Origin: an uncultured Eubacteriales bacterium | GTDB taxonomy: Bacteria; Bacillota; Clostridia; Oscillospirales; Ruminococcaceae | Direction of reading: 5' to 3' | DNA length: 64,000 nucleotides | Assembly: GCA_900314975.1 (NCBI GenBank) | Contig: OMXI01000004.1 | Span: 5,125 to 69,124 of the forward strand | In this document: piece after piece, positions 1,394 through 64,000 of the stretch | Layout of the letters: each line of letters opens with the position of its first letter | Numbering within the stretch: the first letter of the stretch is position 1 | Position numbers and translations under genes: made by a program | The notes under the pieces: generated by a model | What the model was told of the DNA's origin: nothing | Databases searched by the model: none | Seen by the model: the letters and a program-made list of their open reading frames with translations, nothing else

Positions 1394-1422
1394 TTGCAAA
1401 GAGTGAGAAATTGTGCTATACT
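1394..1422 (+). promoter_or_regulatory. Sigma-A type promoter upstream of the giant helicase gene
   Basis: TTGCAA (1394-1399), a 17-nt spacer, then TGc-TATACT (1417-1422, extended -10). It sits 39 nt upstream of ATG 1461. The track's GTG at 1413 lies inside this promoter. Confidence 0.4.
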
Positions 1423-1460
1423 GTTTTTGTGAATTTATTATTAAAACGGGAGGGAACTCA

Positions 1461-33836: not shown

Positions 33837-36800
33837 ATGGAAAACGCAAAAACGGTTCTTATCGTTGACGATGCCTTTATCAACCGTGCCTTACTGAAAA
33901 AGCTGCTTTCCGACCAGTATAATCTCATCGAGGCGGAAAACGGCAAAATAGCTATGGATATCCTCAATGGCAGCACGACAGTTTCGTGCGTGCTGCTTGA
34001 CCTTGAAATGCCTGTTATGGACGGATTTGAGGTGCTTGCAAGGATGCGGGTAAACCCCAAGTTCAATAAGATACCTATCGTAGTGACAACAGGCGGAGAG
34101 GATGCGGATAACGAGATAAAGGCACTCTCTTACGGCGCGTGGGATTTCATAAAGAAACCGTTTGTGCCGCAGGTGCTGCGTTTCCGCATAAAGAACGCTA
34201 TCGAAAGAAGCCAGTTCGCCGCTTTCGAGCAGCTCAAATACGTTGCGGAATTCGATACCCTCACCGACATCTTCAACAGGGACAAGTTCTATTCCGAGAC
34301 CCAAAGGCTTATAAGCGAACACCCTGATAAGCGATTTGCGATAATAAGACTTGATATAAACCATTTCAGCCTTATCAACTCGTTCTTTGGAATGGACGAG
34401 GGCAACTCGCTGCTCAAATATATTGCAAAGCATCTGCGCGTTAATACCGCAGACTTCATGGGCAGTGCCTTCGGACGTATGGAGGCTGATATTTTCGGCA
34501 TCTGCGTGCCTTTTTCGGACAAGCAGACTATAGAGCATTTTGTTATGCGAAGCATGAATGCGCTTCAGAATTTCTCCAGCGCTTACTATATCGTGCCCTG
34601 CTTTGGCATCTATATCACGGGCGAGGAGGATATTCCTGTCTCGATTATGTTTGACCGAGCAACGCTTGCGGCAAAGCACTGCAAGGGCAACTATGTCAAC
34701 TACTTTGAGTATTATAACGACGATATGCGCCTGCGTATCGAAAAAGAGCAGGAGATAGTCAACGATATGAACTATGCCCTGCAGGATAATCAGTTCACTA
34801 TCTACGTCCAGCCCAAGTACAACGTTATGACCAATACCCCCGCAGGCGGCGAGGTGCTGGTAAGGTGGATACACCCAAAGAAAGGCATGATACCTCCGGG
34901 ACTGTTCATACCGCTGTTTGAGAAAAACGGCTTCGTTGTTAAGCTCGACGCGTATGTGTGGGAGGAAGCCTGCAAGGTGCTCAAGGGCTGGCTCAACGAG
35001 GGCAAAAAGCCAAATCCGCTTTCGGTCAACGTATCGCGCGTTAATATCTATAACCCGCACTTTGTCGATAACATCATAAAGCTTGTCGACAGGTATCAGG
35101 TGCCGCATAACCTGTTTAATATCGAGCTTACCGAGAGTGCGTATACCGATAACCCTGATATCCTTGTAAAGACGATATACAGGCTGCAAAAGGAAGGCTT
35201 CTCAATAATGATGGACGACTTCGGCAGCGGCTATTCGTCACTTTCCATGCTCAAAAATATCCCCGTAGATATATTGAAAATCGATATGAACTTTTTTGTT
35301 GATGCCAACAAAAAGAGCAGGTGCGAAAGCATAGTCGCATCTATCGTGCGTATGAGCAAGTGGCTCAACATACCCGTTATCGCAGAGGGCGTTGAAACCG
35401 CCGAACTTGTAGGTTTTCTGCGCGAGATAGGCTGCGACTATATACAGGGCTACTACTATGCTAAACCGATGTGTATAAAGGACTACGAGCGCTATGCCTT
35501 CACACCAGACAGCAGCATAAACAGTATGCTCGGCAGCGAGGGCGACGAGGTAATGACCCATATCGACGAGGTGCTCGGCTTTGCGGATAATACCCAGCCC
35601 GTTGCAATAATCGAATGTGATGCGCATATGCCCGAGGACGTGGAGATAATCCGCGTGAACGATGCGTTCTTTGAGCTGCTCAATTCACCCACGCGCGTGC
35701 TTTATAAGTACAATCCGCTTGATATCGTCTACGAGCGCGACAGGTGGAAGATAGTTGAATCACTGCGTGAAACTATCGAAACAAAAGCATCGGCAGAGTG
35801 TGAGTACAGCCGCTATATCGCCTTCAGCAACAGCTATAAGAGTATCCACGCAAAGTTTGAGTATATCGATATGATAGGCAATAAGTGTATCCTGCTCGCA
35901 CGGCTTGAGGATATAACCGTCGAGCGCGAGTTTGAAAAGAAGCTCAAAAAGCTGCGCCAGTCTATGCACAATCAGGCAGGCGTTACCAGCCGTATGCTGA
36001 TAATTGACGATCTGGAGATAAACCGCGAAACGCTGTCCTCTTTCTTTGAGAACAGATTTCGTATCTTCACCGCCGAAAACGGCAAGAAGGCGCTTGAACT
36101 TTTGCAGGAAAACAGCAATATGGATATCATCCTGCTTGACCTCAATATGCCCGAAATGAACGGCGAGGAGTTCCTTAAAGCGAAAAACGCAGACCCCGTG
36201 CTGCGCAATATTCCCGTTGTCATAACCACAGCCGAGGATTCACCGCGGCAGCAGCAGGCAATGATAAACCTCAATGTCAATGACTATATCGTAAGCCCGT
36301 TCGTGCGCGAAACTATGGTTCGCAGGGTCGATAACGTGCTTGAATCCGACAGGTATTTCCGCGATGTGATAAATAAGCACGCAGCAAACACGGGCATAAT
36401 CCACGACTATACCACAGGTATCTATAACAGAGCAACAGGCGAAAAGCTCATCAACAGTATGATGCAGCTCAAAGCGGGCTTGTATGCATTCCTTATTATC
36501 GATATCGACCATTTCAGAAAGATAAACAAGGAAAGCGGAACACAAACCGCAGACCGAATGCTCTTTGAGCTTGCGCAGATGCTTACAGCTATGTTCAGAA
36601 CCAACGACGTCGTTGCAAGAATAGGCGATGACGAGATATGCGTGCTTATGAGCAATATAGCAAACGAAGAGTCTGTTGACGAAAAGTGCCACCAGATAAC
36701 AGAAAAAGTTTCAGCGCTTGACCTTAAGCTGACCGAAAGCAGCTGCCTGTCGTGTACTATCGGCGCAGTGGTTACAGATAAGAACGAAAGCTTTGACAGT

Positions 36801-36881
36801 ATGCTCACGCAGGCAAATGACGAACTTGAAAAAGCACGCAGCGAGGGAGCAAGCTGGTCTGTAAAAGTTATCGGGGACTGA
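33837..36881 (+). CDS. Dual-receiver c-di-GMP signalling protein: REC - degenerate GGDEF - EAL - linker/PAS-like - REC - degenerate GGDEF
   Basis: REC1 (VLIVDD...LLDLEMPVMDG...KP) and REC2 (MLIIDD...LLDLNMPEMNG). EAL motifs look intact: EVLVRW, ELTES, DDFGSGYSSL, KIDMNF, AEGVET, QGYYYAKP. The GGDEF signatures are altered: GRMEADIFGI (~34473-34499) and RIGDDEICVL (~36618-36641). Confidence 0.85.
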   Translation: MENAKTVLIVDDAFINRALLKKLLSDQYNLIEAENGKIAMDILNGSTTVSCVLLDLEMPVMDGFEVLARMRVNPKFNKIPIVVTTGGEDADNEIKALSYGAWDFIKKPFVPQVLRFRIKNAIERSQFAAFEQLKYVAEFDTLTDIFNRDKFYSETQRLISEHPDKRFAIIRLDINHFSLINSFFGMDEGNSLLKYIAKHLRVNTADFMGSAFGRMEADIFGICVPFSDKQTIEHFVMRSMNALQNFSSAYYIVPCFGIYITGEEDIPVSIMFDRATLAAKHCKGNYVNYFEYYNDDMRLRIEKEQEIVNDMNYALQDNQFTIYVQPKYNVMTNTPAGGEVLVRWIHPKKGMIPPGLFIPLFEKNGFVVKLDAYVWEEACKVLKGWLNEGKKPNPLSVNVSRVNIYNPHFVDNIIKLVDRYQVPHNLFNIELTESAYTDNPDILVKTIYRLQKEGFSIMMDDFGSGYSSLSMLKNIPVDILKIDMNFFVDANKKSRCESIVASIVRMSKWLNIPVIAEGVETAELVGFLREIGCDYIQGYYYAKPMCIKDYERYAFTPDSSINSMLGSEGDEVMTHIDEVLGFADNTQPVAIIECDAHMPEDVEIIRVNDAFFELLNSPTRVLYKYNPLDIVYERDRWKIVESLRETIETKASAECEYSRYIAFSNSYKSIHAKFEYIDMIGNKCILLARLEDITVEREFEKKLKKLRQSMHNQAGVTSRMLIIDDLEINRETLSSFFENRFRIFTAENGKKALELLQENSNMDIILLDLNMPEMNGEEFLKAKNADPVLRNIPVVITTAEDSPRQQQAMINLNVNDYIVSPFVRETMVRRVDNVLESDRYFRDVINKHAANTGIIHDYTTGIYNRATGEKLINSMMQLKAGLYAFLIIDIDHFRKINKESGTQTADRMLFELAQMLTAMFRTNDVVARIGDDEICVLMSNIANEESVDEKCHQITEKVSALDLKLTESSCLSCTIGAVVTDKNESFDSMLTQANDELEKARSEGASWSVKVIGD

Positions 36882-48443: not shown

Positions 48444-49985
48444 TTATCTTGCGTTCGCTGTTTTTTCTTGCGCCTTAATTTCTTCAAGCGCCTTTTCAAA
48501 GCACGATATAGACTTCAGCGCGTTGGAATCATCGGTCACCTCGTCATTGTCGCCCTTTGAGTACAGCTTTACAGGCTTTGAGTCAACGAGCGCATAAAGC
48601 GTGTCCTGACCGTAGTCACACATCTTGTGTTCGCAGGTGAACTTTGCCTCGGGGTTCATTTTTGACGCAAATTCTACGCCCTGCTGCAAAAGCGCCGTGT
48701 CGCATTTAACGCCCGATGCTTCGATTTCAGCGATCCCGTTTTTAAGGTTGTCTATAACATTCTCGATAGTATTGCCGCTGCCTGCTATTGATTTTGAAAA
48801 ATCAAAGCTGTACACCTGCCCCTGCGCATCTATGCACATACCGCTTATATGCTGTCCCCACGCCCAGTTTGTACGCAGCTCTATGTACGAAAGCGGGAAC
48901 TGCGGCTTTACATTGCTCTTCTTTATTTCAGGTCTTGGCAGCTCTATCGTCTTTACAAGGTTTTTCTCTGACTGTGTAACACCGCATCGCACGAACTCAT
49001 CAAACCGTTCGCTGCTTGCACCGTAATACAGCGTGCCGTTTTTCAGCTTCAACACATAAACCTTTGCGCCGCCGTCTAACTGCGGGTGCTCAACGAGTAT
49101 GCCCTCGCCGATGCCGATTTCCTCGCCGTCCTTGGTCTTGAGAGTAAGAATGTTCCTTGCGCCGCCCTGAACGTGCTGTTCGCCTTTAAGCTCGGTGTTT
49201 CCATTTTTCAGTATATCGCAAAGCTCCGTAAATATCTTCTGCTTCCATACATTATCGACTATCTCGCCCTCGTAAACCTTTTGGACGTAGTTTTCCTTGT
49301 CGGTGACCGTCTGCTGTCCGCCAATGTATGTAAAGTCGGAGTACTTGCCGTCTGTGATATTCTTGACCTTGTCCTTTAAAATGCTGCGGTTGTCGTCCGT
49401 CTTTACAAGGTTTTCATCGCTTATAACACCCTCGCGTATATCTGTATCGAAAATGCGCTGATCTTCGCTGTCGGCTGTAAAATACATTGTTCCGTACTGC
49501 GAGATGAAAGCATAAGCGCTCGGTCCGCCTGCCTCCTCGTCATTGTTGGTGATAATACACTTGTAAACAACGTAATGCTCGCCGCCGCTGCCCTCGATAG
49601 TAAGCTCGGGTTCGCTCTGTCCCGCCTTCTGTCCGTATTTGAGCGTCATCTCGCCGCTGCTGATTATCCTGCAAAGCGTGTCAAATATCTCCTGCCTGAA
49701 CTCCTCGGCAACTATCTCACCTTTATAGTAGTATTGCGTGCGCATATCCTTGTCGTAATCACTCGCGCTCGAATAGTATCTGTAATAGTCAAAGCTTTGT
49801 TTTGCAAAGTCCTGCGCAATTGTCGTCGGGGGAGTGAGTTTATCCATTCTGCTGCTGTCGGGGTCGGGTACCTTCTGCGATACCGTGGAAATGTCCGTTC
49901 CCGCCGTACCCTCTGCGGAGTCCGTGCAAGCCGCCATAGAAAGTACCATAGCCGCTGCAACTATCATAGCTGCTAATTTTTTCAT
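48444..49985 (-). CDS. Lipoprotein of unknown function with an internal domain duplication
   Basis: Lipobox MVLSMAAC|TDS. There are two similar modules: YYKGEIVAEEFRQEIFDTLCRIISSGEMTLKYGQ and VYEGEIVDNVWKQKIFTELCDILKNGNTELKGEQ. Confidence 0.7.
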   Translation of the reverse strand: MKKLAAMIVAAAMVLSMAACTDSAEGTAGTDISTVSQKVPDPDSSRMDKLTPPTTIAQDFAKQSFDYYRYYSSASDYDKDMRTQYYYKGEIVAEEFRQEIFDTLCRIISSGEMTLKYGQKAGQSEPELTIEGSGGEHYVVYKCIITNNDEEAGGPSAYAFISQYGTMYFTADSEDQRIFDTDIREGVISDENLVKTDDNRSILKDKVKNITDGKYSDFTYIGGQQTVTDKENYVQKVYEGEIVDNVWKQKIFTELCDILKNGNTELKGEQHVQGGARNILTLKTKDGEEIGIGEGILVEHPQLDGGAKVYVLKLKNGTLYYGASSERFDEFVRCGVTQSEKNLVKTIELPRPEIKKSNVKPQFPLSYIELRTNWAWGQHISGMCIDAQGQVYSFDFSKSIAGSGNTIENVIDNLKNGIAEIEASGVKCDTALLQQGVEFASKMNPEAKFTCEHKMCDYGQDTLYALVDSKPVKLYSKGDNDEVTDDSNALKSISCFEKALEEIKAQEKTANAR

Positions 49986-50518: not shown

Positions 50519-50878
50519 ATGCAGATAAACTTTGAAAGCGAAAAGCCGATCTTCGTACAGCTGGCGGATTGGCTGAGCGACAGTATCATTTCGGGAGCCA
50601 TAAAAGAAGGGGAGCAGATACCGTCAACCACAGAAATGTCGGTGAACCTGAAGATCAATCCCGCGACCGCGCTGAAGGGCGTGAATATGCTGGTAGACAA
50701 GGGCATCATCTATAAGAAAAGGGGACTGGGAATGTTTGTATCACAAGGAGCAGTTGAAACACTGAAAAAGGAAAGGCAGTCAGAGTTCTTCGGCGAGTAT
50801 ATCAGAAAAATGCTTGATGAAGCAGCCAAGCTCGGACTTACCAAAAACGACATAATCGAACTTATCGAAAGGGGATAA
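50519..50878 (+). CDS. GntR family transcriptional regulator, YtrA subfamily (short effector domain)
   Basis: Winged HTH (IPSTTEMSVNLKINPATALKGVNMLVDKGIIYKKRGLGMFV). At 119 aa it fits the YtrA-type size. It precedes an ABC ATPase and membrane proteins. Confidence 0.8.
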   Translation: MQINFESEKPIFVQLADWLSDSIISGAIKEGEQIPSTTEMSVNLKINPATALKGVNMLVDKGIIYKKRGLGMFVSQGAVETLKKERQSEFFGEYIRKMLDEAAKLGLTKNDIIELIERG

Positions 50879-50883
50879 TAAAA

Positions 50884-51729
50884 ATGAGAGGGATAGAACT
50901 TAAAAATCTTACAAAACACTATAAGGACACCAAAGCACTTGAGGATATCTCGCTGACCATAGAGTACGGCAAGATCTACGGACTGCTCGGCAGGAACGGT
51001 GCAGGCAAATCCACAATGGTAAACCTCATCTCAAACCGCATCTTCCCGACCTCGGGCGAGATCTTCGTAGACGGCGAGATGTCCATCGAGAACGACGAGG
51101 CGCTGCGCAAGATCTTCACCATGAGCGAGCATAACCTGCTCCCCGTTGACAGAAAGTTCAAGGACGCAGTCAAGCTGGTAAAGGAGTTTTACCCCGCACT
51201 TGACGAGGATTACGCCTTCGCCCTTGCAGAAAAATTCGAGCTTGACGTCAAGAAAAAGCTGATGTCGCTCTCAACAGGCTATTCAAGCATCTCAAAGCTC
51301 ATAATCGCGCTTGCATCGGGTGCTGACTACATATTCTTTGACGAGCCTGTTTTGGGTCTTGACCCTAATCACAGAGAGCTTTTCTATAAGGAGCTCATCG
51401 ACCGCTACGCCAATACCGGCAGTACCTTCGTGATCTCCACCCACCTCATCGACGAGTGTGCAAGCCTTATCGAAAAAGCAATAATCATCGACAAGGGCAG
51501 ACTTGCCACCGCAGAGGACACCGAAAAGATAATGCAGGATTCCTACACCGTCACAGGACCTGCCGAGCTGGTCGATAAGTACACCGCAGGCAAGACCGTG
51601 ATCGGCAGCGATAACGTCGGCGGCATCAAGTCCGCATACGTCAAGGGCAAGGCTGAAAATGTTCCGCAGGGACTTGAGATCTCAAAGGCAAGCCTGCAAA
51701 GCCTGTTTATCAGAATGACAAACGATTGA
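50884..51729 (+). CDS. ABC transporter ATP-binding protein
   Basis: Walker A GRNGAGKST, signature LSTGYSS, Walker B IFFDEPVLGLD. Confidence 0.85.
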   Translation: MRGIELKNLTKHYKDTKALEDISLTIEYGKIYGLLGRNGAGKSTMVNLISNRIFPTSGEIFVDGEMSIENDEALRKIFTMSEHNLLPVDRKFKDAVKLVKEFYPALDEDYAFALAEKFELDVKKKLMSLSTGYSSISKLIIALASGADYIFFDEPVLGLDPNHRELFYKELIDRYANTGSTFVISTHLIDECASLIEKAIIIDKGRLATAEDTEKIMQDSYTVTGPAELVDKYTAGKTVIGSDNVGGIKSAYVKGKAENVPQGLEISKASLQSLFIRMTND

Positions 51730-51751
51730 GAACAAATGGGGGATAGATAAA

Positions 51752-52525
51752 ATGTATACAAAGAAATTACTTCGCACTACCTGGAATATAAAAGAAGTAT
51801 TATCGCTGGTAGCGGTTTTCGCGGTGATAGTTGCAATATTCTCGTTCATCGAGTTCCAGGACGCAAGAGGAGATCTTGATGACCTGTATAAAAAGAGCAG
51901 CACAGTAACTCAGGAGCAGATAGATAAAATAAGTGTCGTTTCGCCCGTCGGTATCATGGCAATGGTAGCCGCACTCGGCTTCGGACTTGCGTTCACCGCG
52001 CAGATGTTCAGCCTCTCGCTTCAGGTAAACGTCACCAGAAAGCACCTGCACCGCGCAACGCTCTTGTCCGAGCTGATATGCGCAGGTCTTATAACCGCAA
52101 CAGTATTTCCCGCAAGAATGGGTGTAAATCTTATCTTCTCAAAGCTTTGCACAGGCAGGTATTCCGTGCTTTCTGATAAGTTCAGAGATGTCGCCTTCAA
52201 TACAGCACCATTTTCAAAGAATATGGTCGCATCACAGGGCATTATCAGCGGCATACTTCTTATGCTCTTCGGCTCGCTGCTGTTCGCACTTATCGGCTCG
52301 CTGCTGCTGAATTTCCTGTCAAGGTTCAAAGGCGCAGGTGTGGTAGCGGCAAGCATACTTTGCTTCTTCGCAGCAGCAGGTATAGTCATCACACTTATCG
52401 TGCTTTCATCAAAGTGGATCTCTATCGCAGTTCTCGGCTCGCTTCTCGTGATAATGCTCGTGGCACAGTGGAAGCTGATAAAAACACAGACGCTTGACAG
52501 CAAAAGCGCTGTAAAAGCAGCATAA
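51752..52525 (+). CDS. Multi-TM membrane protein (putative ABC-2-like permease component)
   Basis: Roughly 6 hydrophobic segments. It follows the ATPase with its own RBS (GGGGGA). Confidence 0.6.
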   Translation: MYTKKLLRTTWNIKEVLSLVAVFAVIVAIFSFIEFQDARGDLDDLYKKSSTVTQEQIDKISVVSPVGIMAMVAALGFGLAFTAQMFSLSLQVNVTRKHLHRATLLSELICAGLITATVFPARMGVNLIFSKLCTGRYSVLSDKFRDVAFNTAPFSKNMVASQGIISGILLMLFGSLLFALIGSLLLNFLSRFKGAGVVAASILCFFAAAGIVITLIVLSSKWISIAVLGSLLVIMLVAQWKLIKTQTLDSKSAVKAA

Positions 52526-52538
52526 GGGGGAAAAGAAA

Positions 52539-53297
52539 ATGAAAAATGATCTGATGCGCTATGTACTCAAAAAATCGACCATTGTACAGAGTTTTATCGC
52601 CGTTTGTATCGCCGCAGTAATAAGCCTTGGCGTTATCATATTCTCGGCAGTATTCCTCGATCCGCCCGCTAAAGAAAAGGCTTTGAACAACATAACTACC
52701 GTGGTCCTCGCATTCTGGATGTTCATAAGCGCGGTAACTGTTTCGAGTGAATGCGCAAATATGAGCATCTGCCTCAACCGTTCAAGAAGATCGGCGCTCA
52801 AAACCGTGTTTGCATCACTGCTGATAAGCACAGTCGTGTTCGCCGCTGTAAACTTCGCAGCAGAGGCACTGCTTTCGGGCGTTTGCCCCGGCCTGGGACT
52901 TAATTATTCTTTCAGCCCGCTTATCAAAATCTTTGGCATAGTAAAGACAGGCACCGATATCGCAGGTCTGGCACTCGCATTCGCATTCCAGCTTCTCGTC
53001 TACTACTGCATCGGCATCGCAGGCGCACTCTTTATGACCGTGTGCTTAAAGTGCGGCAAATGGGCTTGGGTAATATTCTGGTTAGCGTATATGTCGCTGT
53101 TCATGTTCGGAAGGACCATCGTAAGCGGCTTGAAAAGCGCAGCAAGCAGTATGTTCTCAAGCACGGGCGCATTCGTACTGTGCCTGCTGGCAGTAACATC
53201 AGTCGTTTGTACGATCGTCCAGATCATCCTCGCAAGGAAGCTGGAGCTGAACAAAAACGCTTTGATGTTCGGCTATAAAAGAACTACCCAGCAATAA
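52539..53297 (+). CDS. Multi-TM membrane protein (second putative permease component)
   Basis: Roughly 6 hydrophobic segments. AAGGGGGA RBS. Last gene before the strong terminator. Confidence 0.6.
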   Translation: MKNDLMRYVLKKSTIVQSFIAVCIAAVISLGVIIFSAVFLDPPAKEKALNNITTVVLAFWMFISAVTVSSECANMSICLNRSRRSALKTVFASLLISTVVFAAVNFAAEALLSGVCPGLGLNYSFSPLIKIFGIVKTGTDIAGLALAFAFQLLVYYCIGIAGALFMTVCLKCGKWAWVIFWLAYMSLFMFGRTIVSGLKSAASSMFSSTGAFVLCLLAVTSVVCTIVQIILARKLELNKNALMFGYKRTTQQ

Positions 53298-53332
53298 AGA
53301 GCGTTATACTATCCCGCGCTCTTTAAATAATG

Positions 53333-53369
53333 ATCGGCATCTGCCCTTTGGCGGATGTCGATTTTTTTA
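53333..53369 (+). terminator. Rho-independent terminator marking the core/island boundary
   Basis: ATCGGCATC-12 nt loop-GATGTCGAT is followed by a T7 run. A second hairpin, AAAGAGCG...CGCTCTTT, sits just upstream at ~53297-53324. Confidence 0.7.
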
Positions 53370-53529
53370 TCGCTGCGCAGCATTTTCAGCAGGTTATCAT
53401 CAGCTTGTCATACTAATATAGTATAATATAAATCAACAATCAGACACAGCAGCTTCAAATCTGTTAAAAGTGTGAAAGAAATTCATAAATCGCACAATCA
53501 TCTTTGTGCATTTTTGTCAAATATGCTTA

Positions 53530-53558
53530 TTGCCAAATAAGGACTTTTATTGTATAAT
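53530..53558 (+). promoter_or_regulatory. Sigma-A type promoter of the AT-rich island operon
   Basis: TTGCCA (53530-53535), a 17-nt spacer, then TATAAT (53553-53558) preceded by TG. It lies about 94 nt upstream of ATG 53652. Confidence 0.5.
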
Positions 53559-53651
53559 ATAAGAGAGTAAATATGCCTACAAGGGGCAAGTGTACCCTCT
53601 TGACGAAAATGTCTAAATTATTAACATAAAAATGAAAGCGAGGTGAGAGTA

Positions 53652-55653: not shown

Positions 55654-56640
55654 ATGCCGAAGAATATAAAAAGTTTTCTCAAAAAGCATATTATTGCAAT
55701 ATGGATAACAGCAGCTGCTCTCACGCTTGTGACACTCGGCGTTATGGCTTCTTACACCAATCAGAGCAATAAGGCAAAAAAAGTAGTTGCTACAGTTGCT
55801 AAAACAGAAATGCAGTTCTCATCGAACTATCTGGATACTACTAATCCGTTCAGAACCATAGTAATAAATGACGGTGATGCTATAAGTGTCGATGTAAGGA
55901 ATTACAGCGGTAATTCAACTACGTGGTATAAATCGGATATCAATTATACTTTTACAGCAGAACTGACAAAAACAGACGGAAGCAGCCTATCAGAAAGTGA
56001 GGCTGCGGAGCTGTTGGGCGACGGAGGCTCGGTTATAATAAAAACTGCAGATGATGAAGGAACTGAGAGTCCTACTCCATTATGCACGCTTACAGCAACA
56101 AACAGGAGTTCTGGCGACATATCACGTTGCTTGACATTTAATTCTTCAGCAACTACATCTGATCATTTCAAGGTTTATTTTTCAAGTCCATCAAGCAAGG
56201 TGTGTGTAAAGATTACAGCAACGCCAAACGTTTCGTATAAAGATTTGGAACTGATCAGCGCCATACTTGCTGTATCAGATAAAAGCAGTGTTCAAAACAA
56301 TGGTTGGACCGGGGAATTCACAGATCCTATGACTAATAAGACTCCATCAGACTATGATGCATATAATTATGCTATTACAGGAAACGGCAATTCAGATTCC
56401 GCTACACTGAGATGGGATTCAAGTAAAATCAGTATTAATAGTCAATATATCAGAGATACATTACATGTAACGACGATAAGTGATATTCCGGGGCGAACAG
56501 GCTGGAAGGAAATAACGTTCTCTCTTGATTCAACCACAAGCAGTGGACGTTATTCGTTCCAAGTGTTTAAGGTTAACGGACAGATTCCTGCAACTTGGAA
56601 TGCACTTAAAGGTTATATAGAATTTGACGATGGTATTTAA
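55654..56640 (+). CDS. Island protein C: basic N-tail, one TM segment, ASYTNQ motif, beta-rich ectodomain
   Basis: GGGAGTG RBS and ATG 55654 (ATG 55636 is also possible). The N-terminus is MPKNIKSFLKKHIIAIWITAAALTLVTLGVMASYTNQSNKAKKVVATV. Confidence 0.6.
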   Translation: MPKNIKSFLKKHIIAIWITAAALTLVTLGVMASYTNQSNKAKKVVATVAKTEMQFSSNYLDTTNPFRTIVINDGDAISVDVRNYSGNSTTWYKSDINYTFTAELTKTDGSSLSESEAAELLGDGGSVIIKTADDEGTESPTPLCTLTATNRSSGDISRCLTFNSSATTSDHFKVYFSSPSSKVCVKITATPNVSYKDLELISAILAVSDKSSVQNNGWTGEFTDPMTNKTPSDYDAYNYAITGNGNSDSATLRWDSSKISINSQYIRDTLHVTTISDIPGRTGWKEITFSLDSTTSSGRYSFQVFKVNGQIPATWNALKGYIEFDDGI

Positions 56641-56675
56641 TTCTCAGTATCATCATTAATTCAGAGGTGAGCAAA

Positions 56676-59600
56676 ATGACAAAAGCAAGAAAGAAAAAAA
56701 ATAGCAGTATTATTTTTAAGCGCGTGATCAGTACTGTCACAGCGTTTACTCTCCTTGCCTGTAGCTTACCTATGTCTGAAATCTCAAGCAAACTTATGTC
56801 TTTGCCGGGAACTATAGTTGCCCAAGCAGATGAATATGGACATAATCCGACCTTGTTTACACCAAACGATGTAATAGAATACTCAAAGGACTATAATGCT
56901 CGTCCCGATTTTCATTATAATGATATAGTAACAATCTCATATAGTGGTTCTGATTCCAGCGTTGCATTTACAGGATTTCAGAGTATTGGCAAAACAAGAG
57001 CTTTTGAAGGAAAATTAATAATAGACACTGTTTCAGATCATTGGCTCAATATTGATGTTCCTATGTTTGAACAAATTGCTGATAATGCAGAGATAGAAAC
57101 AGCATCAGGAAGACAGCTTATTATCAAGCCAACGGCAGACAGCGATGAACCGGTTTTTGCAAAAAAAGTCGTTCACAAGGATGGCAATAATCAAACTGCA
57201 AATTGGAAAGTCGAAATAGGAAATTATAATTCTGAGAATCACAAGCACGGCAGCGTTATAGGTACATTAGATGAAGATGCAAAGGTCTCTTTGTCTGTTG
57301 TTAATGATTACAGTGCTGCAGTTGAAGGCAAGACGAATGCTGGTGTGATATGCGAGACTATGAATGCTGACTCAGCACTTACTGTTACAAGTATAAGCGG
57401 TTCGGATATGACAAGCGTTACTGCTAAAAATGGCAACGCAGGTGGTCTTGTCGGTGAAATGGAAGCAGGCTCTACACTGAATGTAAATGGTGCAAGCAGT
57501 GCCTTTGCTTCTCCTACATCAACAATAACTGCAAAAGGATCAGATCACTATGCAGGCGGCTTGGTTGGTAAGAACTTTCAAGCGACAGTTACAACCAATA
57601 ATGGTTATACTGCAATAAAAAACACCATTTCAGGAACCGCAGGTGCTGGTGGCTTATTTGGATATTATAAACCTATCCTGACGTCGAATACTTTTAGTCT
57701 TGACCTGGATTCTTACACTATTGGAGATTCATCCAAGAAATGCAGTGTTTCGAGCATCGGCGGAGCAGGCGGCTTCTTTGGTGTGCTTGATAATCCACAA
57801 GGCGGAACAATAACTCTCAGCGGTAGTAGTACTAAACCTATCTATGCTAAAGGTGCAGGAAATACCACTGTATTTGGCGGTATAATAGGAACTTACAGGG
57901 CTAACTCTATCGATAATTCACTGTTCATCAATGGAACAAGTTCAAGCAATAAGCTTACAATAAACACTGATAAGTCAAACGATCTTGCATATTATGGCGG
58001 CGTTATCGGAAAGATAGACGGTTCTGTTTTTGCAAGCGTAGAAAGCGTTTCTGTAAATGCTTCAAATGCAGGCGATGAGTTCTTTGGCGGCGCAGTAGCT
58101 TGCGCTGATGACGGATATGTTTATGTCAAGGATTTTGCTCTTACAGCATCCGGCACTCACGGCGGCGGCGTAGTTGGACATTGTGCAAATGGAGTTGTTC
58201 ATCTTGCAGGAGCTACAGATCTTTCAGGTGCAACTTCCGCCACAGAAAGCGCAAAATATGGTCAAATTGTAGGATACAGGGATAGTGCGCTCGTTTTTGC
58301 GGACAGCAGTTGGAATCTGACCAGAAGCAGTTCGTCAAGCAACACCGCCGATGATATTGGAGCATGGGGTGAGGTAGTACGGTTTAAAGATTCTGGTTTT
58401 GTTATCAGTGACGTGCTTGATGCTTACTATATTCCTACAGCCGCATCGCCTAATCACTATGCGACTGTTAAAGCCGCAGCATTTTCAGGCACAAAAATAG
58501 CGCTTTCGGATAAAGCAACATTTGCTAGGGCTGCTCTTAATATGCAGCTTAATAATGGATCTTCAGATAGCACAAAGACCCTCAGATTTGCAGATACAAC
58601 AAATAGCACATACACTGTTCTTAAATCAAAAAGTGTAGCTATGTCAGCTGATATTGATCTTAGCCATACAGGTATGACAGGATTGACAAGAGACAACAAA
58701 TTATCTGAATGGACTGCTGATATAGGACCTGAATACTCCGGTTCAGAATTTGACGGCGGCACTTATACCTTGACACTTGCTATCGGAGAGGGTTATAATG
58801 GCGCAGATACCACTAATATCTCTGATTCAAGCAGCAAAGGTAAAATCTATTGCCATAGATTTAATGGCCTGTTTGGTGAAACTAGTTCTGCTTTTACTGT
58901 AAAGAATGTTACAATAACAGGAAAAGTACATACCTATGATCGAGCTGGTAAGGATGCGATATTTTATGTCGGTACCATAGCAGGTAATGCAGCTGCTGCG
59001 TTTAATGCAACAGGTGTGACTGTTAACAACAGCACAAGCGTAGTTTATGGTACAAACAGCGCAGATGACGAATTATATGTCGGCGGTCTTGTGGGCAAAA
59101 TGTCTGCACCGGGTACTTCAACTATTGGTTCACAAGCTTATGTCGGAACTACAAACAGCACATTCAGTGCTTCGATAACCGGAAATGCTGCAAACGGTAC
59201 GCCCTATATCGGTGGAGTTTCAGGATATGTTGACGGGAACGACGGTGTAGTAAATGTCTATGATGTTAAGATTAGTGGTTCTGTAACTAACAGTGGAACC
59301 AGAAAAGATCAGTATATAGGTGGTCTCTTTGCAAATGCATGGAACTGTACTCTTAATCTTGATGGCGTAGAATTGAATGGATTAACTGTCAAGGGTAAAA
59401 TGAACAGTGATGGTGGAGCCACGATGGGTGGACTGCTTGGATATAACTACCTCAATACTACATCGACATTTGACAATATTAAAGTTTTAAATTGCATTCT
59501 TGATAATGATTCTTCAACAGGAAAAATGGCTGGACTTGTTAATATGGGTTCAGGTTACTGGAAATTCCTAAAAGTTGAAATAGGAGGAGATTCTCCTTCT

Positions 59601-62600
59601 GTTAATGGAATTACACTTGCGGGCAGTTCTGCCGAGTCTTTTGGTATGCTTGTTAACAGAGCATCTTCCGGCGAAAGTGCTATGTATTTGGAGCTCCCAT
59701 CAGGATTCACTTATAAGATTTATAATGTTTCAGGTACTGCTCCTGCGATTTATGATGAGATAGCAGCTAACACAAAACTTGCTGGTTCCATTGAAGAGAA
59801 CGGAAACCCGATTGTGTCAATCAATACGAACGGTACAACAAGATATGGTCCACAGACTGACACAACAGTCCATATGACATCCGGTACCTGCAATACATAT
59901 CAAAATCAGGTCACCGCTACGGGATTCAATAAGTATAATCCCAATTCAAGGTATTATTATAACGTTGATAACTATATTGGGCAATCTAATTCTGGAGCAG
60001 CAGCGCTCTATCTGTGGAGCGTTTATCAGTATGCCCACAGCACTATACAATTAAAGATTGCTGCATCTGCACCATCAGCATCGTTTTCAGGATCACTTGA
60101 CCTTGACGGATACAGCTATTATCCTGTTGATGTTTCTGGTTCTGGAACGGTTAATATTCAAGGCAATGTCAAACTTTATAATGAAAAAATAGAAAATATT
60201 GAAGCTGCTTCTTCGGGCGGCTCTGATAGTTATGCCAGAACAACATTAAAAGATACTACAAATAATACGACAACACAGCATTATCTTATGCACGCAGGTT
60301 TGTTCCGTAATGTTAGCGGTACTGTAAATATAAACGGAGCATTGAGTCTTAACGGAACTGTTCCTCTTATAAATTCTTATTGCGGAGCACTTGTTTGTGG
60401 AACAATAGGTGGAAGTACATCGTCAAATGCAACTGTAACATCTAACAATACAGGTGCAAGTATTTCCCTTGCGGGTATAAAAATACATAATAAGAACAGT
60501 TCATATTCTCCGTTGCTGATAAACAAGGCAAGCACTAATGTTGTCCTTGATATTTATAATGTATCCGCAAGCGGTTATTCATCTAATGATACTATCGCAA
60601 CCAGTCTTCTTGGAAAAGTTGGTTCAGACACTGCGGTGGAAGTAAAAGTTACATTCAATAGTATTGAGCTTGATGCTCGCTCTTCCAATACGCCATCTAC
60701 TCTTGATACTGTATACGGAACAACAAAATCTCTTTTTACAAGAGCAACTCTTCTTGAAAGCCTTGAATATGCTTCTGGTTCGGGTTCATATGGTGTGTAT
60801 AATTATGAGTATAGCGAGGACTGGAATGCTTCACATAGTCATATAGGTGATGTGACATACGGCAAAGAACTTACAAATAACGACAGCAAGAATTATGGAA
60901 AAGAATTCTGGTATTATAATGAAAATCATGCGAGTGTTGATGCGCATTATGTTGATCCATTGAATTATAATACAACAGGAAATGGTATATCAAGTGTCGA
61001 TTTCACAGGTTATATTCCTTATGTTGCAGTTTGGGGCAGTGATATAGGAACATCTACAACAAAACATCAGCTTAACGTCAATCATGCGGCAGCAACGTTT
61101 GGTGGCTGTGGAACATACAACGATCCATACAAGATTACAGACGGCAGTCAGCTTGAGTCGATTGCAAAGATACTGAGCGGCGATGATGACAACGGTACGT
61201 TTTGGCTTTATTATCCGGATGATACTGATCAATGGTGTGACAACAAAGATCAACACAAAGCATATAGATATTATTCAGCTCAATTTACAACAAAGGAAGG
61301 TACATCAGTTACTCCAACTGAAGGCACTTATTATCAGGTCATACCTTTTACCGAAAGCGGTATCACAAATTATTATGTAACAAATGCAAGCAAAGACAAT
61401 ACCCTTTCTCCGAGCGCAGTTCGTAAACATCTTGCAGGAGCATATTATTATCTTGACAAAAATATTATCATTAGTGCAAGTTCCGGTTATGCTGGTCTTG
61501 GAAGTAATTCAGACAGTACATATGCTTTTCATGGAGTAATTGCCGGAAATGATAAAACCATAACCAACCAGTCGGGTTCTCCGTTGATATATGCAAGCAA
61601 CGGTTGCGTTGTCAGAAATCTCAAGGTTGTTGCTGAGAATAACAGTATTGCACTTACTGGTACTGCAAGCAACGGTTTTCAAACATCCGGAGGCTGCGGC
61701 GCATATGGTGCTGTTATCGGCAGAGTATTTGGTGGCGATAACATTCTTGACAAAGTTAAGGTCGATGTCAGCAGTGCAGTGGTAACTCCAACAACGGTGA
61801 CACCTGTAGGCGGATACATTGGTGTTATTGTTGAAGGTGGCGTATTCTTCCGCAATATGGATGATACTAATGTGCCTGTTGCAGATAAAACCGGGTTTGC
61901 TACAACAACAGTAAATAATGGGACAACAGTCGCAACAATCTATAACGAGGACAGCAAGCAGTATTTGTATTGCAATCCGCTAATCGGCAGAGTCATCAAC
62001 GGATTTGCAGTTACAGAGGCAAGCGCTTATGCTCCTTATGAGGATGGATATAGATATTTCGGCAGCGGAACGACTCCCGTATCTGGGAACGCTGTAACGC
62101 TAAAAAATGGCAACAAGAACTATTCGATCACAGATATTGCACCAAATGATAAGCTCACAGTTTCAGCAAAATCATTCACCGTATCATCTTCACAGCAATT
62201 CTTTGTGATGTCGCTCATCATTAACAGCGGTATAGGGACAAATGGTACGAATGTTGTTGGTTATTATGGTTCTAATCAGATGACGCGCCGTGCTGATTAT
62301 TCTGATGTCGGAACAGACGTTAAGAAAACTGACGATGGATATGCAAGCACTAATGCATGGAAGGATTATCAGAAAGCAAAGGATGATGACACTGCCAATC
62401 CATATCTGTTAGACAAGTACGCAACAGGTACTTACGCAAAACAACTTGGAAGCGAGTCGGGATTCACTATTAATTTGAATGCTGATATTATTTTACCTGA
62501 TGGGTATAAAGGTATTGGAAATATTTATGGAACGGAAGCAATTATAAATAATAATAAAGCAAGAATTCTAAATGATAACCTTCAATTAGCATTATCAAAT

Positions 62601-64000
62601 TTCAATGGTAATGACCATACTATATCTCAAAACACCACCTATTATAGCTATACTAAAGGGAATGATAATTATTTACCATATACACATTATTCCTATGTCG
62701 ATAAAGGGGTTACAAAGTATAATAATAATGTTCACGGCTTGGGGTTATTCAATTATGTTAAAAATGCAACATATAAAGAATGTATCCTGACAGGAAATGT
62801 AAAAACTCGTCAGTATAACACCGATGGTACGGCTCCTAATTACATTCGATCTGATGATTTTACTGCTTTAGCTGCTGGAATGTTTATCGGTACACTTAAT
62901 ATGGGCAACAACGCAACAATCACCGATGTGTACCTCCAAAACACCTATACCGAAGGCTCACGTGAAGCGGCTGGCTTAATAGGATTTTTGATTAATGGAG
63001 GTAAGAAAATATCTATTTCCAATACAATTAGTAAATCAACACAATCGAATAAAATTCGTGTAAGTGCTGGAACGAGTGCTGCTGGATTGATTGCAAGACA
63101 AGGTCTTATAGATTCTGGACCAAGTGGTGGTGTTGGAGAAATTGAAATTAAACTTAATGGGCACCAATTTGATTACGTAAGTATTATTTCGAGATATGAT
63201 GGAACATTCGAAAAAGATAAATGGAATTCCGATTGGTCTTTAGGAGTTGGTGGAATTGTTGGTATAGCCAGAGCAGGTACAAACGATATCTCAGCTACAA
63301 ATAACCATATTACAATTGAAGGTGTCAATATTGGCAAGGCTGTTGGTGATAATGCAAGAGTAGTGGCATGTGAGTATATCGACTCAAGTGGCCAGACAGT
63401 GAGAGGTAATGTATATACTGGTGGATTGGTAGGAGTAGCAAATAAAGCACCAATAGATGCAACCGACTGTAATATTTATAATGTTACGGTTAGTTCTGCA
63501 AATTATTCTGGAGGTGTTCTTGGCTGGGGAGGTACTTGGTCAAATATTAATTTGGACAATTTCACAATAAAGAATACTCTTAATGGCGATAATGCTGCTA
63601 AGATCATCTCGAACTCAACGGGTAATGCTGGCTGTGTTGTTGGTTTCTGCAAAGGCGGAGACGATAAACAAAGCATGGGTAGTCTAAAGATTAATGATAG
63701 TATAATTGAAGGGTATACTGTTGAGGCAGGATATGCTGGCTCTGCATTAGGGGACTGGAATTCAAGTAAACCATTTTCAATCAATAATTCTATTGTTAAT
63801 AACTGTACTATCAATTATTATGCCGCTGGAGGAGGTCTTGCAGGACAGCTTAAGCAAAGCTTAAATGGATATAATGTCAGAGTAAGTGAAATAACTTTTA
63901 CGAAGAAAGGAGATGCTGAGACTACCTATAGAGGATATATTGCTGGTAAGCGTGATGGCGGAACTATTAAAATTGTTGGCTTCCAAAGAACAGGAACAAT
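56676..64000 (+). CDS. Giant secreted GLUG-motif beta-helix surface protein, 5' part (>2,441 codons, open at the window end)
   Basis: Not in the ORF track because no stop is reached. GAGGTGA RBS and ATG 56676. I translated the frame by hand to 63998 without meeting a stop; the four listed plus-strand ORFs in this span all share one other frame. Signal peptide MTKARKKKNSSIIFKRVISTVTAFTLLACS...IVAQA|DE. More than 20 GLUG-like units (NAGGLVGE, YAGGLVGK, GAGGLFGY, GAGGFFGV, YYGGVIGK, YVGGLVGK, YIGGVSGY, TMGGLLGY, YTGGLVGV, YSGGVLGW, AAGGGLAGQ). FGGCGTYNDPYKITDGSQLESI is a module start typical of GLUG proteins. Confidence 0.85.
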   Translation, partial: MTKARKKKNSSIIFKRVISTVTAFTLLACSLPMSEISSKLMSLPGTIVAQADEYGHNPTLFTPNDVIEYSKDYNARPDFHYNDIVTISYSGSDSSVAFTGFQSIGKTRAFEGKLIIDTVSDHWLNIDVPMFEQIADNAEIETASGRQLIIKPTADSDEPVFAKKVVHKDGNNQTANWKVEIGNYNSENHKHGSVIGTLDEDAKVSLSVVNDYSAAVEGKTNAGVICETMNADSALTVTSISGSDMTSVTAKNGNAGGLVGEMEAGSTLNVNGASSAFASPTSTITAKGSDHYAGGLVGKNFQATVTTNNGYTAIKNTISGTAGAGGLFGYYKPILTSNTFSLDLDSYTIGDSSKKCSVSSIGGAGGFFGVLDNPQGGTITLSGSSTKPIYAKGAGNTTVFGGIIGTYRANSIDNSLFINGTSSSNKLTINTDKSNDLAYYGGVIGKIDGSVFASVESVSVNASNAGDEFFGGAVACADDGYVYVKDFALTASGTHGGGVVGHCANGVVHLAGATDLSGATSATESAKYGQIVGYRDSALVFADSSWNLTRSSSSSNTADDIGAWGEVVRFKDSGFVISDVLDAYYIPTAASPNHYATVKAAAFSGTKIALSDKATFARAALNMQLNNGSSDSTKTLRFADTTNSTYTVLKSKSVAMSADIDLSHTGMTGLTRDNKLSEWTADIGPEYSGSEFDGGTYTLTLAIGEGYNGADTTNISDSSSKGKIYCHRFNGLFGETSSAFTVKNVTITGKVHTYDRAGKDAIFYVGTIAGNAAAAFNATGVTVNNSTSVVYGTNSADDELYVGGLVGKMSAPGTSTIGSQAYVGTTNSTFSASITGNAANGTPYIGGVSGYVDGNDGVVNVYDVKISGSVTNSGTRKDQYIGGLFANAWNCTLNLDGVELNGLTVKGKMNSDGGATMGGLLGYNYLNTTSTFDNIKVLNCILDNDSSTGKMAGLVNMGSGYWKFLKVEIGGDSPSVNGITLAGSSAESFGMLVNRASSGESAMYLELPSGFTYKIYNVSGTAPAIYDEIAANTKLAGSIEENGNPIVSINTNGTTRYGPQTDTTVHMTSGTCNTYQNQVTATGFNKYNPNSRYYYNVDNYIGQSNSGAAALYLWSVYQYAHSTIQLKIAASAPSASFSGSLDLDGYSYYPVDVSGSGTVNIQGNVKLYNEKIENIEAASSGGSDSYARTTLKDTTNNTTTQHYLMHAGLFRNVSGTVNINGALSLNGTVPLINSYCGALVCGTIGGSTSSNATVTSNNTGASISLAGIKIHNKNSSYSPLLINKASTNVVLDIYNVSASGYSSNDTIATSLLGKVGSDTAVEVKVTFNSIELDARSSNTPSTLDTVYGTTKSLFTRATLLESLEYASGSGSYGVYNYEYSEDWNASHSHIGDVTYGKELTNNDSKNYGKEFWYYNENHASVDAHYVDPLNYNTTGNGISSVDFTGYIPYVAVWGSDIGTSTTKHQLNVNHAAATFGGCGTYNDPYKITDGSQLESIAKILSGDDDNGTFWLYYPDDTDQWCDNKDQHKAYRYYSAQFTTKEGTSVTPTEGTYYQVIPFTESGITNYYVTNASKDNTLSPSAVRKHLAGAYYYLDKNIIISASSGYAGLGSNSDSTYAFHGVIAGNDKTITNQSGSPLIYASNGCVVRNLKVVAENNSIALTGTASNGFQTSGGCGAYGAVIGRVFGGDNILDKVKVDVSSAVVTPTTVTPVGGYIGVIVEGGVFFRNMDDTNVPVADKTGFATTTVNNGTTVATIYNEDSKQYLYCNPLIGRVINGFAVTEASAYAPYEDGYRYFGSGTTPVSGNAVTLKNGNKNYSITDIAPNDKLTVSAKSFTVSSSQQFFVMSLIINSGIGTNGTNVVGYYGSNQMTRRADYSDVGTDVKKTDDGYASTNAWKDYQKAKDDDTANPYLLDKYATGTYAKQLGSESGFTINLNADIILPDGYKGIGNIYGTEAIINNNKARILNDNLQLALSNFNGNDHTISQNTTYYSYTKGNDNYLPYTHYSYVDKGVTKYNNNVHGLGLFNYVKNATYKECILTGNVKTRQYNTDGTAPNYIRSDDFTALAAGMFIGTLNMGNNATITDVYLQNTYTEGSREAAGLIGFLINGGKKISISNTISKSTQSNKIRVSAGTSAAGLIARQGLIDSGPSGGVGEIEIKLNGHQFDYVSIISRYDGTFEKDKWNSDWSLGVGGIVGIARAGTNDISATNNHITIEGVNIGKAVGDNARVVACEYIDSSGQTVRGNVYTGGLVGVANKAPIDATDCNIYNVTVSSANYSGGVLGWGGTWSNINLDNFTIKNTLNGDNAAKIISNSTGNAGCVVGFCKGGDDKQSMGSLKINDSIIEGYTVEAGYAGSALGDWNSSKPFSINNSIVNNCTINYYAAGGGLAGQLKQSLNGYNVRVSEITFTKKGDAETTYRGYIAGKRDGGTIKIVGFQRTGT

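Follow-up and report, generated by a model that had tools for sequence, protein, structure and literature searches.

A stretch of 64,000 nucleotides from an uncultured Eubacteriales bacterium of the Ruminococcaceae (GenBank assembly GCA_900314975.1, contig OMXI01000004.1, positions 5,125 to 69,124 of the forward strand) was analyzed and is referred to here as the window. Its right-hand end carries the 5' portion of a giant gene, the last member of an operon that also contains three smaller genes, here named A, B, and C. The giant reading frame had been singled out in an earlier reading of the same DNA (the original prediction). That reading missed both the three conserved partner genes and the island of deviating base composition that encloses the operon; these are new in this analysis.

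The giant gene and its operon

Translation of positions 56676 to 64000 of the forward strand gave 2,441 codons with zero stops to the window end, as had been claimed, and the other five frames of the same interval contain 83 to 265 stops each. At this base composition, the chance of an open frame this long is ~4e-76. The ATG at 56676 is also the start in public gene calls, the closest upstream in-frame stop lies at position 56625, and the ribosome-binding site described in the original prediction is in place ahead of the start codon. As stated there, the frame is absent from the supplied list of open reading frames (ORFs); it appeared hidden because that listing omits frames running off either end. 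The 3' end was recovered from public contigs. The complete gene spans 9,930 nucleotides, of which the window carries the 5' 74%, and its product has 3,309 amino acids (aa). A public protein of that length (P0001) is 100% identical across the window-encoded part. The noted richness in Asn, Ser, Thr, and Gly, together with several Cys, was also borne out (G+S+T+N, 40.5% of residues; 22 Cys).

Misassembly, a collapsed repeat, and a pseudogene broken by frameshifts had been named as concerns. Cattle-rumen metagenome contigs from three public assemblies showed 0 differences in the 7,323 nucleotides compared and read on to the stop of an intact 3,309-aa gene. A search for tandem or dispersed DNA repeats inside the giant ORF found none; thus, a collapsed repeat is no concern. 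Cultured isolates carry full-length collinear homologs. Taken together, the three identical assemblies, the lack of DNA repeats within the ORF, and the homologs in isolates exclude all three artifacts, and the giant gene is real and intact.

Genes A, B, C, and giant are separated by only 7 to 35 nucleotides, and a hairpin lies 3' of the giant gene's stop (Table 1). The GC content of this cassette is 37 to 41%, with a GC content at third codon positions (GC3) of 0.28 to 0.36; the rest of the window has 48 to 52% GC and a GC3 of 0.54 to 0.66. Overall, GC is ~40% in the cassette and 49% elsewhere. The edges of the compositional island are the edges of the operon. Synteny was assessed in a sample of 79 species-level genomes collected via gene B. 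A was present in 75 of these, C in 76, and the giant gene in 66, always in the order A-B-C-giant and on one strand, and most cases of a missing A, C, or giant gene coincide with short or cut contigs. In every locus examined, A, B, and C were orthologous and syntenic with the giant gene. The hosts comprise Ruminococcus (including R. flavefaciens), Lachnospiraceae, Oscillospiraceae, Eubacterium ruminantium, E. uniforme, and Huintestinicola, along with a few metagenome-assembled genomes of Bacilli and Acholeplasmatales; most carriers come from rumen or gut. Cultured carriers include Ruminococcus sp. NK3A76, R. flavefaciens strains, E. ruminantium FB3002, E. uniforme ATCC 35992, and Huintestinicola butyrica. 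The four genes form a conserved, self-contained, compositionally foreign, horizontally mobile operon.

Pfam and NCBIfam contain no family that matches A, B, or C, and no match to the whole giant protein at an E value of <= 1. PDB sequences were matched neither by profiles of A, B, and C nor by the giant protein (phmmer) or its 3,302-position family profile, PHROG had no match for any of the four cassette proteins, and no description of an A-B-C-giant system was found in the literature searched. To judge from these comparisons, none of the four proteins belongs to a described family.

Table 1. Features of the operon and of the giant protein, in window coordinates
Feature	Position	Strand	Description
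Terminator-like hairpin	53332..53363	+	14 pairs plus T-run; at the end of the GntR/ABC operon that precedes A; left boundary of the low-GC island
Promoter-like site upstream of A	53530..53558	+	TTGCCA-17-TATAAT; 11/12 matches; consensus match alone
Partner gene A, 363 aa	53643..54734	+	Charged N-terminal tail, one hydrophobic helix, AWFAQNK, then β-sandwich and helical domain without a known fold
Partner gene B, 294 aa	54744..55628	+	Best-conserved member of the cassette; leader/anchor module with SWFNNQKK, a homolog of the module in A
Partner gene C, 334 aa	55636..56640	+	N-terminal hydrophobic helix
Ribosome-binding site	56664..56670	+	GAGGTGA, 5 nucleotides before ATG 56676
Giant gene, codons 1-2441 of 3309	56676..64000	+	Open to the window end; the gene would end at ~66605, past the window
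N-terminal signal or anchor region, aa 1-52	56676..56831	+	Basic n-region, hydrophobic core, conserved P-[ML]-x-[ED]-I, then AQA|DE
β-Helix repeat region R1, aa 220-545	57333..58310	+	Eight G-G-φ-φ-G-type units, spacing 26-40 aa
β-Helix repeat region R2, aa 700-1000	58773..59675	+	Homologous to R1 and R4
Best-conserved nonrepetitive core, aa 1080-1470	59913..61085	+	Invariant R1092, H1202, D1333, R1335, D1382, E1398
Region R3, aa 1475-1800	61098..62075	+	Opens with invariant G-C-G-T-Y-N-x-P-Y motif; β-rich in the model
β-Helix repeat region R4, aa 1990-2450	62643..64000	+	Cut by the window end; stacked short strands modeled confidently

Termini, repeats, and predicted fold of the giant protein

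A Sec-type N-terminus had been proposed for the giant protein, and its elements recur throughout the family. In a set of 217 relatives, the n-region is free of acidic residues and contains a median of 6 Lys/Arg, and the basic n-region, the hydrophobic core, and an [AVS]-x-A site, usually with acidic residues next, are kept in 212/217 (median position 49). The cleavage site proposed earlier for the giant protein, AQA|DE, agrees with this pattern. The [AVS]-x-A site sits ~19 residues beyond the hydrophobic core, an atypically long spacer for a type I signal peptide; thus, an uncleaved signal anchor, or cleavage by a specialized peptidase, is possible. A lipoprotein was also considered and rejected, as FTLLAC at Cys29 fits the lipobox pattern but Cys29 is not conserved among the relatives. 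These features show a predicted Sec-type signal or anchor at the N-terminus, by which the giant protein would be exported.

The original prediction anticipated an LPXTG anchor beyond the window end. The recovered C-terminus reads ...YTDLIKQAS and has no membrane tail, and the full 3,309 aa are free of LPXTG-like motifs. Similarly, the last 60 aa of 217 full-length relatives contain no LPXTG and no hydrophobic tail (maximum hydropathy, 1.4), and the anticipated anchor is therefore absent from the whole set.

More than 20 units of the form G-G-[LVIF]-[VFIL]-G had been reported. The exact pattern occurs 12 times, or 13 times with Ala permitted, and the shuffled expectation is 0.33; a total of ~29 is reached when family-conserved degenerate G-G-φ-φ-G units are included, so the higher count holds under degenerate matching only. 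Regions R1, R2, and R4 are mutually homologous (hhalign probability, 96 to 99%). The motif flagged as a module start, GGCGTYNDPYKITDGSQLESI at 61101-61163 (GGCGTYNDPY...), is real, and its core G-C-G-T-Y-N-x-P is invariant in the family. However, it opens R3, for which hhalign detected no relationship to R1, R2, or R4, and its proposed kinship with the G-G-φ-φ-G regions was not supported. The Pfam GLUG model (PF07581), to which the repeats had been compared, gave no match to the whole giant protein at an E value of <= 1. On four tiles spanning the repeat regions, it matched one stretch at 10.3 bits (E = 1), short of the Pfam gathering cutoff of 20.5 bits, and the GLUG assignment was rejected.

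An AlphaFold2 model was available for aa 1000 to 2199 only, built from a 23-row alignment of limited depth. It has a mean predicted local distance difference test (pLDDT) score of 70.8 and consists mostly of short stacked strands. Beyond trivial alignment lengths, the ranked PDB matches of this model are all right-handed β-helix proteins; they include GH28 enzymes, the entries 7jgj, 7uvk, and 3n6z, SRRP, PfbA, autotransporter passengers, and tailspikes. Among the predicted viral structures of BFVD, two matches fell at <= 1e-3 (E = 5.9e-7 and 1.9e-4) and were followed by a phage "putative IgA1 protease" (E = 0.011), a "right handed beta helix," and pectate-lyase-type proteins. The fold class of the original prediction is thus supported, because the G-G-φ-φ-G regions are homologous to one another and the fold matches of the model are all right-handed β-helices. 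On this evidence, the giant protein is shown as a predicted and largely right-handed β-helix that comprises three paralogous regions, one further region rich in β-strands, and a core confined to the family. A relationship to IgA1 proteases, which had also been suggested, found no corroboration: HExxH does not occur in the giant protein and occurs anywhere in only 2/218 relatives, and the family profile retrieved no IgA1 protease from PDB.

Known domains were equally absent. No Pfam or NCBIfam match to an enzyme, dockerin, cohesin, carbohydrate-binding, or wall-binding domain was found in any part of the protein, which is also devoid of G5 and of any further known module, and neither the whole protein nor the tiles matched GH28, pectate/alginate lyase, or other carbohydrate-active β-helix families of Pfam at an E value of <= 1. 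Conservation is spread evenly over the whole length of the protein, and the conserved positions are mostly of a structural type (Gly, 118/364; Tyr, 54/364). The few invariant polar residues are concentrated in the nonrepetitive core, and R3 and the sequence beyond it contain further invariant residues, e.g., D1688 (in G-G-D-N-I), R1772, and K1814. A search of 1.84 billion representatives with the core (aa 1080 to 1500) retrieved 268 clusters at 50% identity, and the family numbers thousands of sequences. Nearly all of these proteins have 3,200 to 3,900 aa and place the core at a similar position, and the core was not found outside the giant-protein family. The fixed position of the core and the fixed length thus define a closed family of fixed architecture, unlike adhesins with variable repeats.

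Partner proteins, accessory genes, and exchange between loci

Each of the partner proteins combines a basic N-terminus with a single hydrophobic helix. In a confident structure model of A (pLDDT, 86), a long N-terminal helix precedes a β-sandwich and a helical bundle, and Foldseek found no significant structural neighbor among solved structures. The N-terminus of A (...AWFAQNKAVSANTM...) recalls TasA-type leaders, and this resemblance, along with the SipW genes nearby in some loci, prompted a comparison with TasA. A TasA-like A was rejected: hhalign of 84 A homologs against validated TasA gave a probability of 0.06%, Foldseek placed 8aur_A at rank 33 (E = 0.048; TMt, 0.31), and neither Peptidase_M73 nor any other Pfam family matched A.

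An N-terminal module composed of a basic region, the helix, and AWF..N/Q is common to A, B, and an A-like paralog found in some loci (hhalign, 89 to 98% over 31 to 59 columns); C matched the module of A and B weakly, and the giant protein's own N-terminus does not contain it. The residues preceding WF satisfy the -3/-1 rule of signal peptidase cleavage. The E. ruminantium ortholog of A is extended by ~130 aa of acidic sequence ahead of its hydrophobic helix, which favors a signal-anchored membrane protein over a cleaved precursor. A is probably such a signal-anchored protein, and from the module common to A and B we infer a shared handling machinery.

About 20 of the 79 loci have a conserved accessory block within the 10 kb that precede the cassette. 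Huintestinicola shows this upstream placement, and in Ruminococcus sp. NK3A76 the genes of the block follow the giant gene instead. Encoded there are the A-like paralog, an EAL protein (114 bits), a 261-aa membrane protein, two signal peptidases of the archaeal/endoplasmic reticulum type, a membrane-anchored AAA+ protein, a DUF2357 protein, and two small proteins. The peptidases score 83 to 93 bits with TIGR02228 (cutoff, 51.85) and 91 to 112 bits with the SipW model. About 75% of the 79 loci have no SipW-type gene within 10 kb upstream. A tblastn search of the 64-kb window at an E value of <= 1 found no SipW-like sequence, and its sole match (E = 1.2) was noise; the window locus is a minimal cassette.

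Several details of the block were recorded in passing. The A-like paralog (L029 398-1411) and the 261-aa membrane protein (L029 2402-3187) share a homologous C-terminal domain (hhalign, 96%), and a W-L-E-G-x-[SD]-x-x-C motif is present in both. The membrane-anchored AAA+ protein is McrB-like, has 528 aa, and is 75% identical between Ruminococcus NK3A76 and Huintestinicola. Together with the DUF2357 protein, which contains a long Glu/Arg/Lys-rich coiled region, it always adjoins the SipW-like genes (L029 3924-7546, L004 21865-26347, and L007 1-3504).

A comparison of 1,145 locus pairs showed that the four genes of the cassette co-diverge at similar rates, B being marginally slower than the others. 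A general hypervariability of C and the giant gene was rejected on this basis, and a mosaic was seen in one pair only, formed by the window and the closely related locus L006. Between these two, identity is 91% for GntR, 85% for the ABC ATPase, 86% for A, 90% for B, and 90% for the downstream WYL protein; it is ~56 to 60% for C and ~56 to 62% for the giant protein, the last ~200 residues of which are back up to 94 to 100%. Relative to L006, a single block made up of C and most of the giant gene appears to have been swapped, and this joint exchange argues that C is functionally linked to the giant protein.

The flanks of the cassette differ between the two loci as well. The upstream GntR/ABC ATPase/two-permease operon occupies 50519-53297 (forward strand) in the window and 98-2864 in L006, and its permeases are only 35 to 37% identical, next to 85 to 91% for GntR and the ATPase, which marks a second mosaic block adjoining the cassette. 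The GntR/ABC genes were rejected as members of the system, being linked to the cassette only in the window and L006 and separated from A by the terminator-like and promoter-like sites. Between the ABC operon and A, L006 has a gene for a 536-aa EAL-domain protein (3040-4650) where the window has a gap of 346 bp (53297-53643). Just past the window end, locus L001 (20004-22146) encodes a 199-aa helix-turn-helix (HTH)/WYL protein and a BspA-type leucine-rich-repeat surface protein. The HTH/WYL gene is probably decaying, because it is split into ORFs of 77 and 128 aa in L006. In two other loci (L014 133-11098 and L040 202-11621), B and C are preceded on the same strand by a gene of the giant family, with no A detected between, which may represent a different gene order or cassettes in tandem.

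Outside these features, the window carries ordinary chromosomal DNA, with genes for Mfd, PPDK, transporters, and a 1,014-aa REC-EAL-GGDEF protein (33837-36881, forward strand). The last of these indicates that cyclic di-GMP (c-di-GMP) signaling exists in this organism. A 1,951-aa protein (1413-7268, forward strand) combines a transglutaminase-like core, DUF4011, an SF1 helicase (AAA_11/AAA_12), MTES_1575, and DUF3320. Its MTES_1575 part is a restriction-endonuclease-like domain, and by its domain content the protein looks like a defense-type helicase-nuclease. The reverse strand encodes a predicted lipoprotein of 513 aa (48444-49985) with the signal end LSMAAC, an internal duplication, and no family match.

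Proposed function and related systems

We favor, with slightly more confidence than doubt, the interpretation of the giant protein as a rod-like surface fiber or adhesin that has no covalent wall anchor and depends on A, B, and C for its display. The β-helix rod would be exported by its Sec-type signal or anchor, and the three small partners would hold or assemble it at the cell surface. A would be a signal-anchored membrane protein, and the leader modules of A and B would be handled by shared machinery. In the extended loci only, the SipW-type peptidases would probably process the system and the EAL protein would probably regulate it through c-di-GMP. As a more tentative proposal, possible in our view but short of probable, the cassette and accessory block would constitute an undescribed Gram-positive system for surface-fiber display, in which partners with a private class of leaders mount a 350-kDa β-helix rod on the cell, or release it, with maturation by archaeal-type peptidases and control by c-di-GMP.

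Several observations weigh against these interpretations. In the model, 269/1,200 residues have a pLDDT of < 50, and the PDB fold matches are individually nonsignificant (best E = 8e-3; TM, 0.1 to 0.3). The invariant Asp, Glu, His, and Arg of the core could form a catalytic or ligand site. A resembles neither TasA nor any pilin convincingly. The window lacks every accessory gene, SipW included, and that part of the proposal may not apply here. Finally, no annotated homolog backs adhesion, and the function assigned draws on the export signal, the class of fold, and the neighboring genes.

The surface fiber or adhesin explanation can be sharpened to a dedicated fiber- or pilus-like assembly, in which A, B, and C, with the A-like paralog where it occurs, would be subunits or an anchor of a short stalk that SipW-type peptidases release or mature, and the giant protein would be the tip or cargo, all under c-di-GMP control. 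The leader module common to A, B, and the paralog, the -3/-1 rule obeyed ahead of WF, and the two SipW-type genes and EAL gene beside the cassette in ~20/79 loci are consistent with such an assembly, as is the composition of known SipW operons, which pair a peptidase and exported divergent Ig-fold fiber subunits with a larger partner protein (PMC11580942). We nevertheless consider it doubtful, as A failed every comparison with TasA, its long cytoplasmic extensions favor an uncleaved anchor, the giant N-terminus is devoid of the AWF module, and SipW-like genes are missing from the window and from the upstream 10 kb of most loci. An unlikely role for the giant protein is that of a secreted polysaccharide-active enzyme, e.g., a depolymerase, lyase, or epimerase of β-helix fold whose substrates would be glycans of plant cell walls or capsules, with the partners serving in export or substrate capture. 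GH28 polygalacturonases, PL6 lyases, GH110 enzymes, and fucoidan lyase head the list of PDB fold matches, the core and R3 hold invariant acidic, basic, and His residues, and the hosts are fiber-degrading rumen bacteria. However, adhesins, autotransporters, and tailspikes figure equally among these nonsignificant matches, the Pfam searches described above retrieved no carbohydrate-active β-helix family, carbohydrate-binding module, or dockerin, and the preponderance of Gly and Tyr at conserved positions is a structural pattern.

The original prediction, a GLUG-containing, IgA1-protease-like or adhesin β-helix with a covalent C-terminal LPXTG anchor, has become highly improbable as a whole. The G-G-[LVIF]-[VFIL]-G units are indeed strongly enriched, one sub-threshold GLUG stretch is present, and IgA1-protease folds are among the structural matches (7jgj_A, probability 0.57; 3n6z, TMt 0.32; and the phage protein in BFVD). 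Against this stand the GLUG score below the cutoff on a tile and the absence of a GLUG match on the whole protein, the lack of HExxH and of any IgA1 protease sequence among PDB matches to the family profile, and the C-termini of the 217 relatives. Its LPXTG anchor and metalloprotease parts are refuted, and it survives as a statement of fold class only. Scarcely credible is an origin as an artifact (chance frame, pseudogene, or misassembly) or as a prophage tail-fiber or tailspike gene. The foreign base composition of the cassette, the tailspikes among the fold matches, and phage genes near one related locus would fit a prophage, but the frame is far too long for chance, three assemblies agree on it in the absence of DNA repeats, and thousands of full-length collinear homologs exist, including those in cultured isolates. 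The neighbors of the cassette are chromosomal housekeeping genes, and a phage origin was rejected on the lack of PHROG matches.

Among characterized proteins, the streptococcal and Gemella IgA1 proteases (ZmpA family; 7jgj and 7uvk) and the Bacteroides "putative IgA1 protease" 3n6z resemble the giant protein in their G-G-hydrophobic-hydrophobic-G turns, ~25 to 40 residues apart, and the GLUG regions of IgA1 proteases belong to the right-handed β-helix class that recurs among the fold matches. Unlike these proteases, the giant protein stays below the GLUG threshold, shows no profile link, lacks HExxH, LPXTG, and G5, and has an entirely different architecture and set of gene partners. The binding region of Lactobacillus reuteri SRRP, pneumococcal PfbA, and autotransporter passengers such as Ag43 and Hbp are likewise secreted, elongated, Gly/Ser/Thr/Asn-rich β-helices from the same list of fold matches. 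They are anchored by LPXTG/sortase, an aSec-dependent serine-rich stalk, or an outer-membrane β-barrel, none of which the giant protein possesses; in contrast to them, it has a fixed, nonrepetitive architecture and three obligate partner genes.

In the related loci, SipW-like peptidases adjoin exported proteins with a common leader and one much larger exported protein, as in tapA-sipW-tasA of B. subtilis and sipW-bsaA-bsaB-bsaC of C. perfringens (PMC11580942, PMC7395162). The differences are that A is not TasA-like, that the large protein is a predicted 3,309-aa β-helix and not a 70-kDa vWA protein, that the extended loci add EAL, membrane AAA+, and DUF2357 proteins, and that the window locus has no SipW. 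By gene neighborhood, SipW operons may be regarded as the nearest analogy. The extended loci also call to mind the LapA/LapD/LapG system of Pseudomonas, by analogy alone, with a giant surface adhesin, a protease gene, and an EAL-domain protein nearby. LapA differs in being an RTX-repeat protein that Gram-negative cells secrete by the type I route, and the protease LapG is of the Cys type. The EAL protein of the block matched LapD very weakly (E = 0.061), and no sequence relationship to the Lap system was found.

Ruminococcus, Lachnospiraceae, and Oscillospiraceae are key fiber degraders of the rumen and human gut. To our knowledge, little has been described of their attachment to particles, mucus, and each other beyond cellulosomes and type IV pili. 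The locus defines a family of exported proteins of ~3,300 residues, in which no classical Gram-positive anchoring signals were found, and three obligate partner families, all four unannotated. If the proposed display mechanism is true, it would represent a further means by which Gram-positive bacteria mount giant proteins on their surface, and possibly a new role for SipW-type peptidases and c-di-GMP in Clostridia. The analysis thus yields candidates for four new protein families, along with an operon that can be tested in the cultured strains carrying it.

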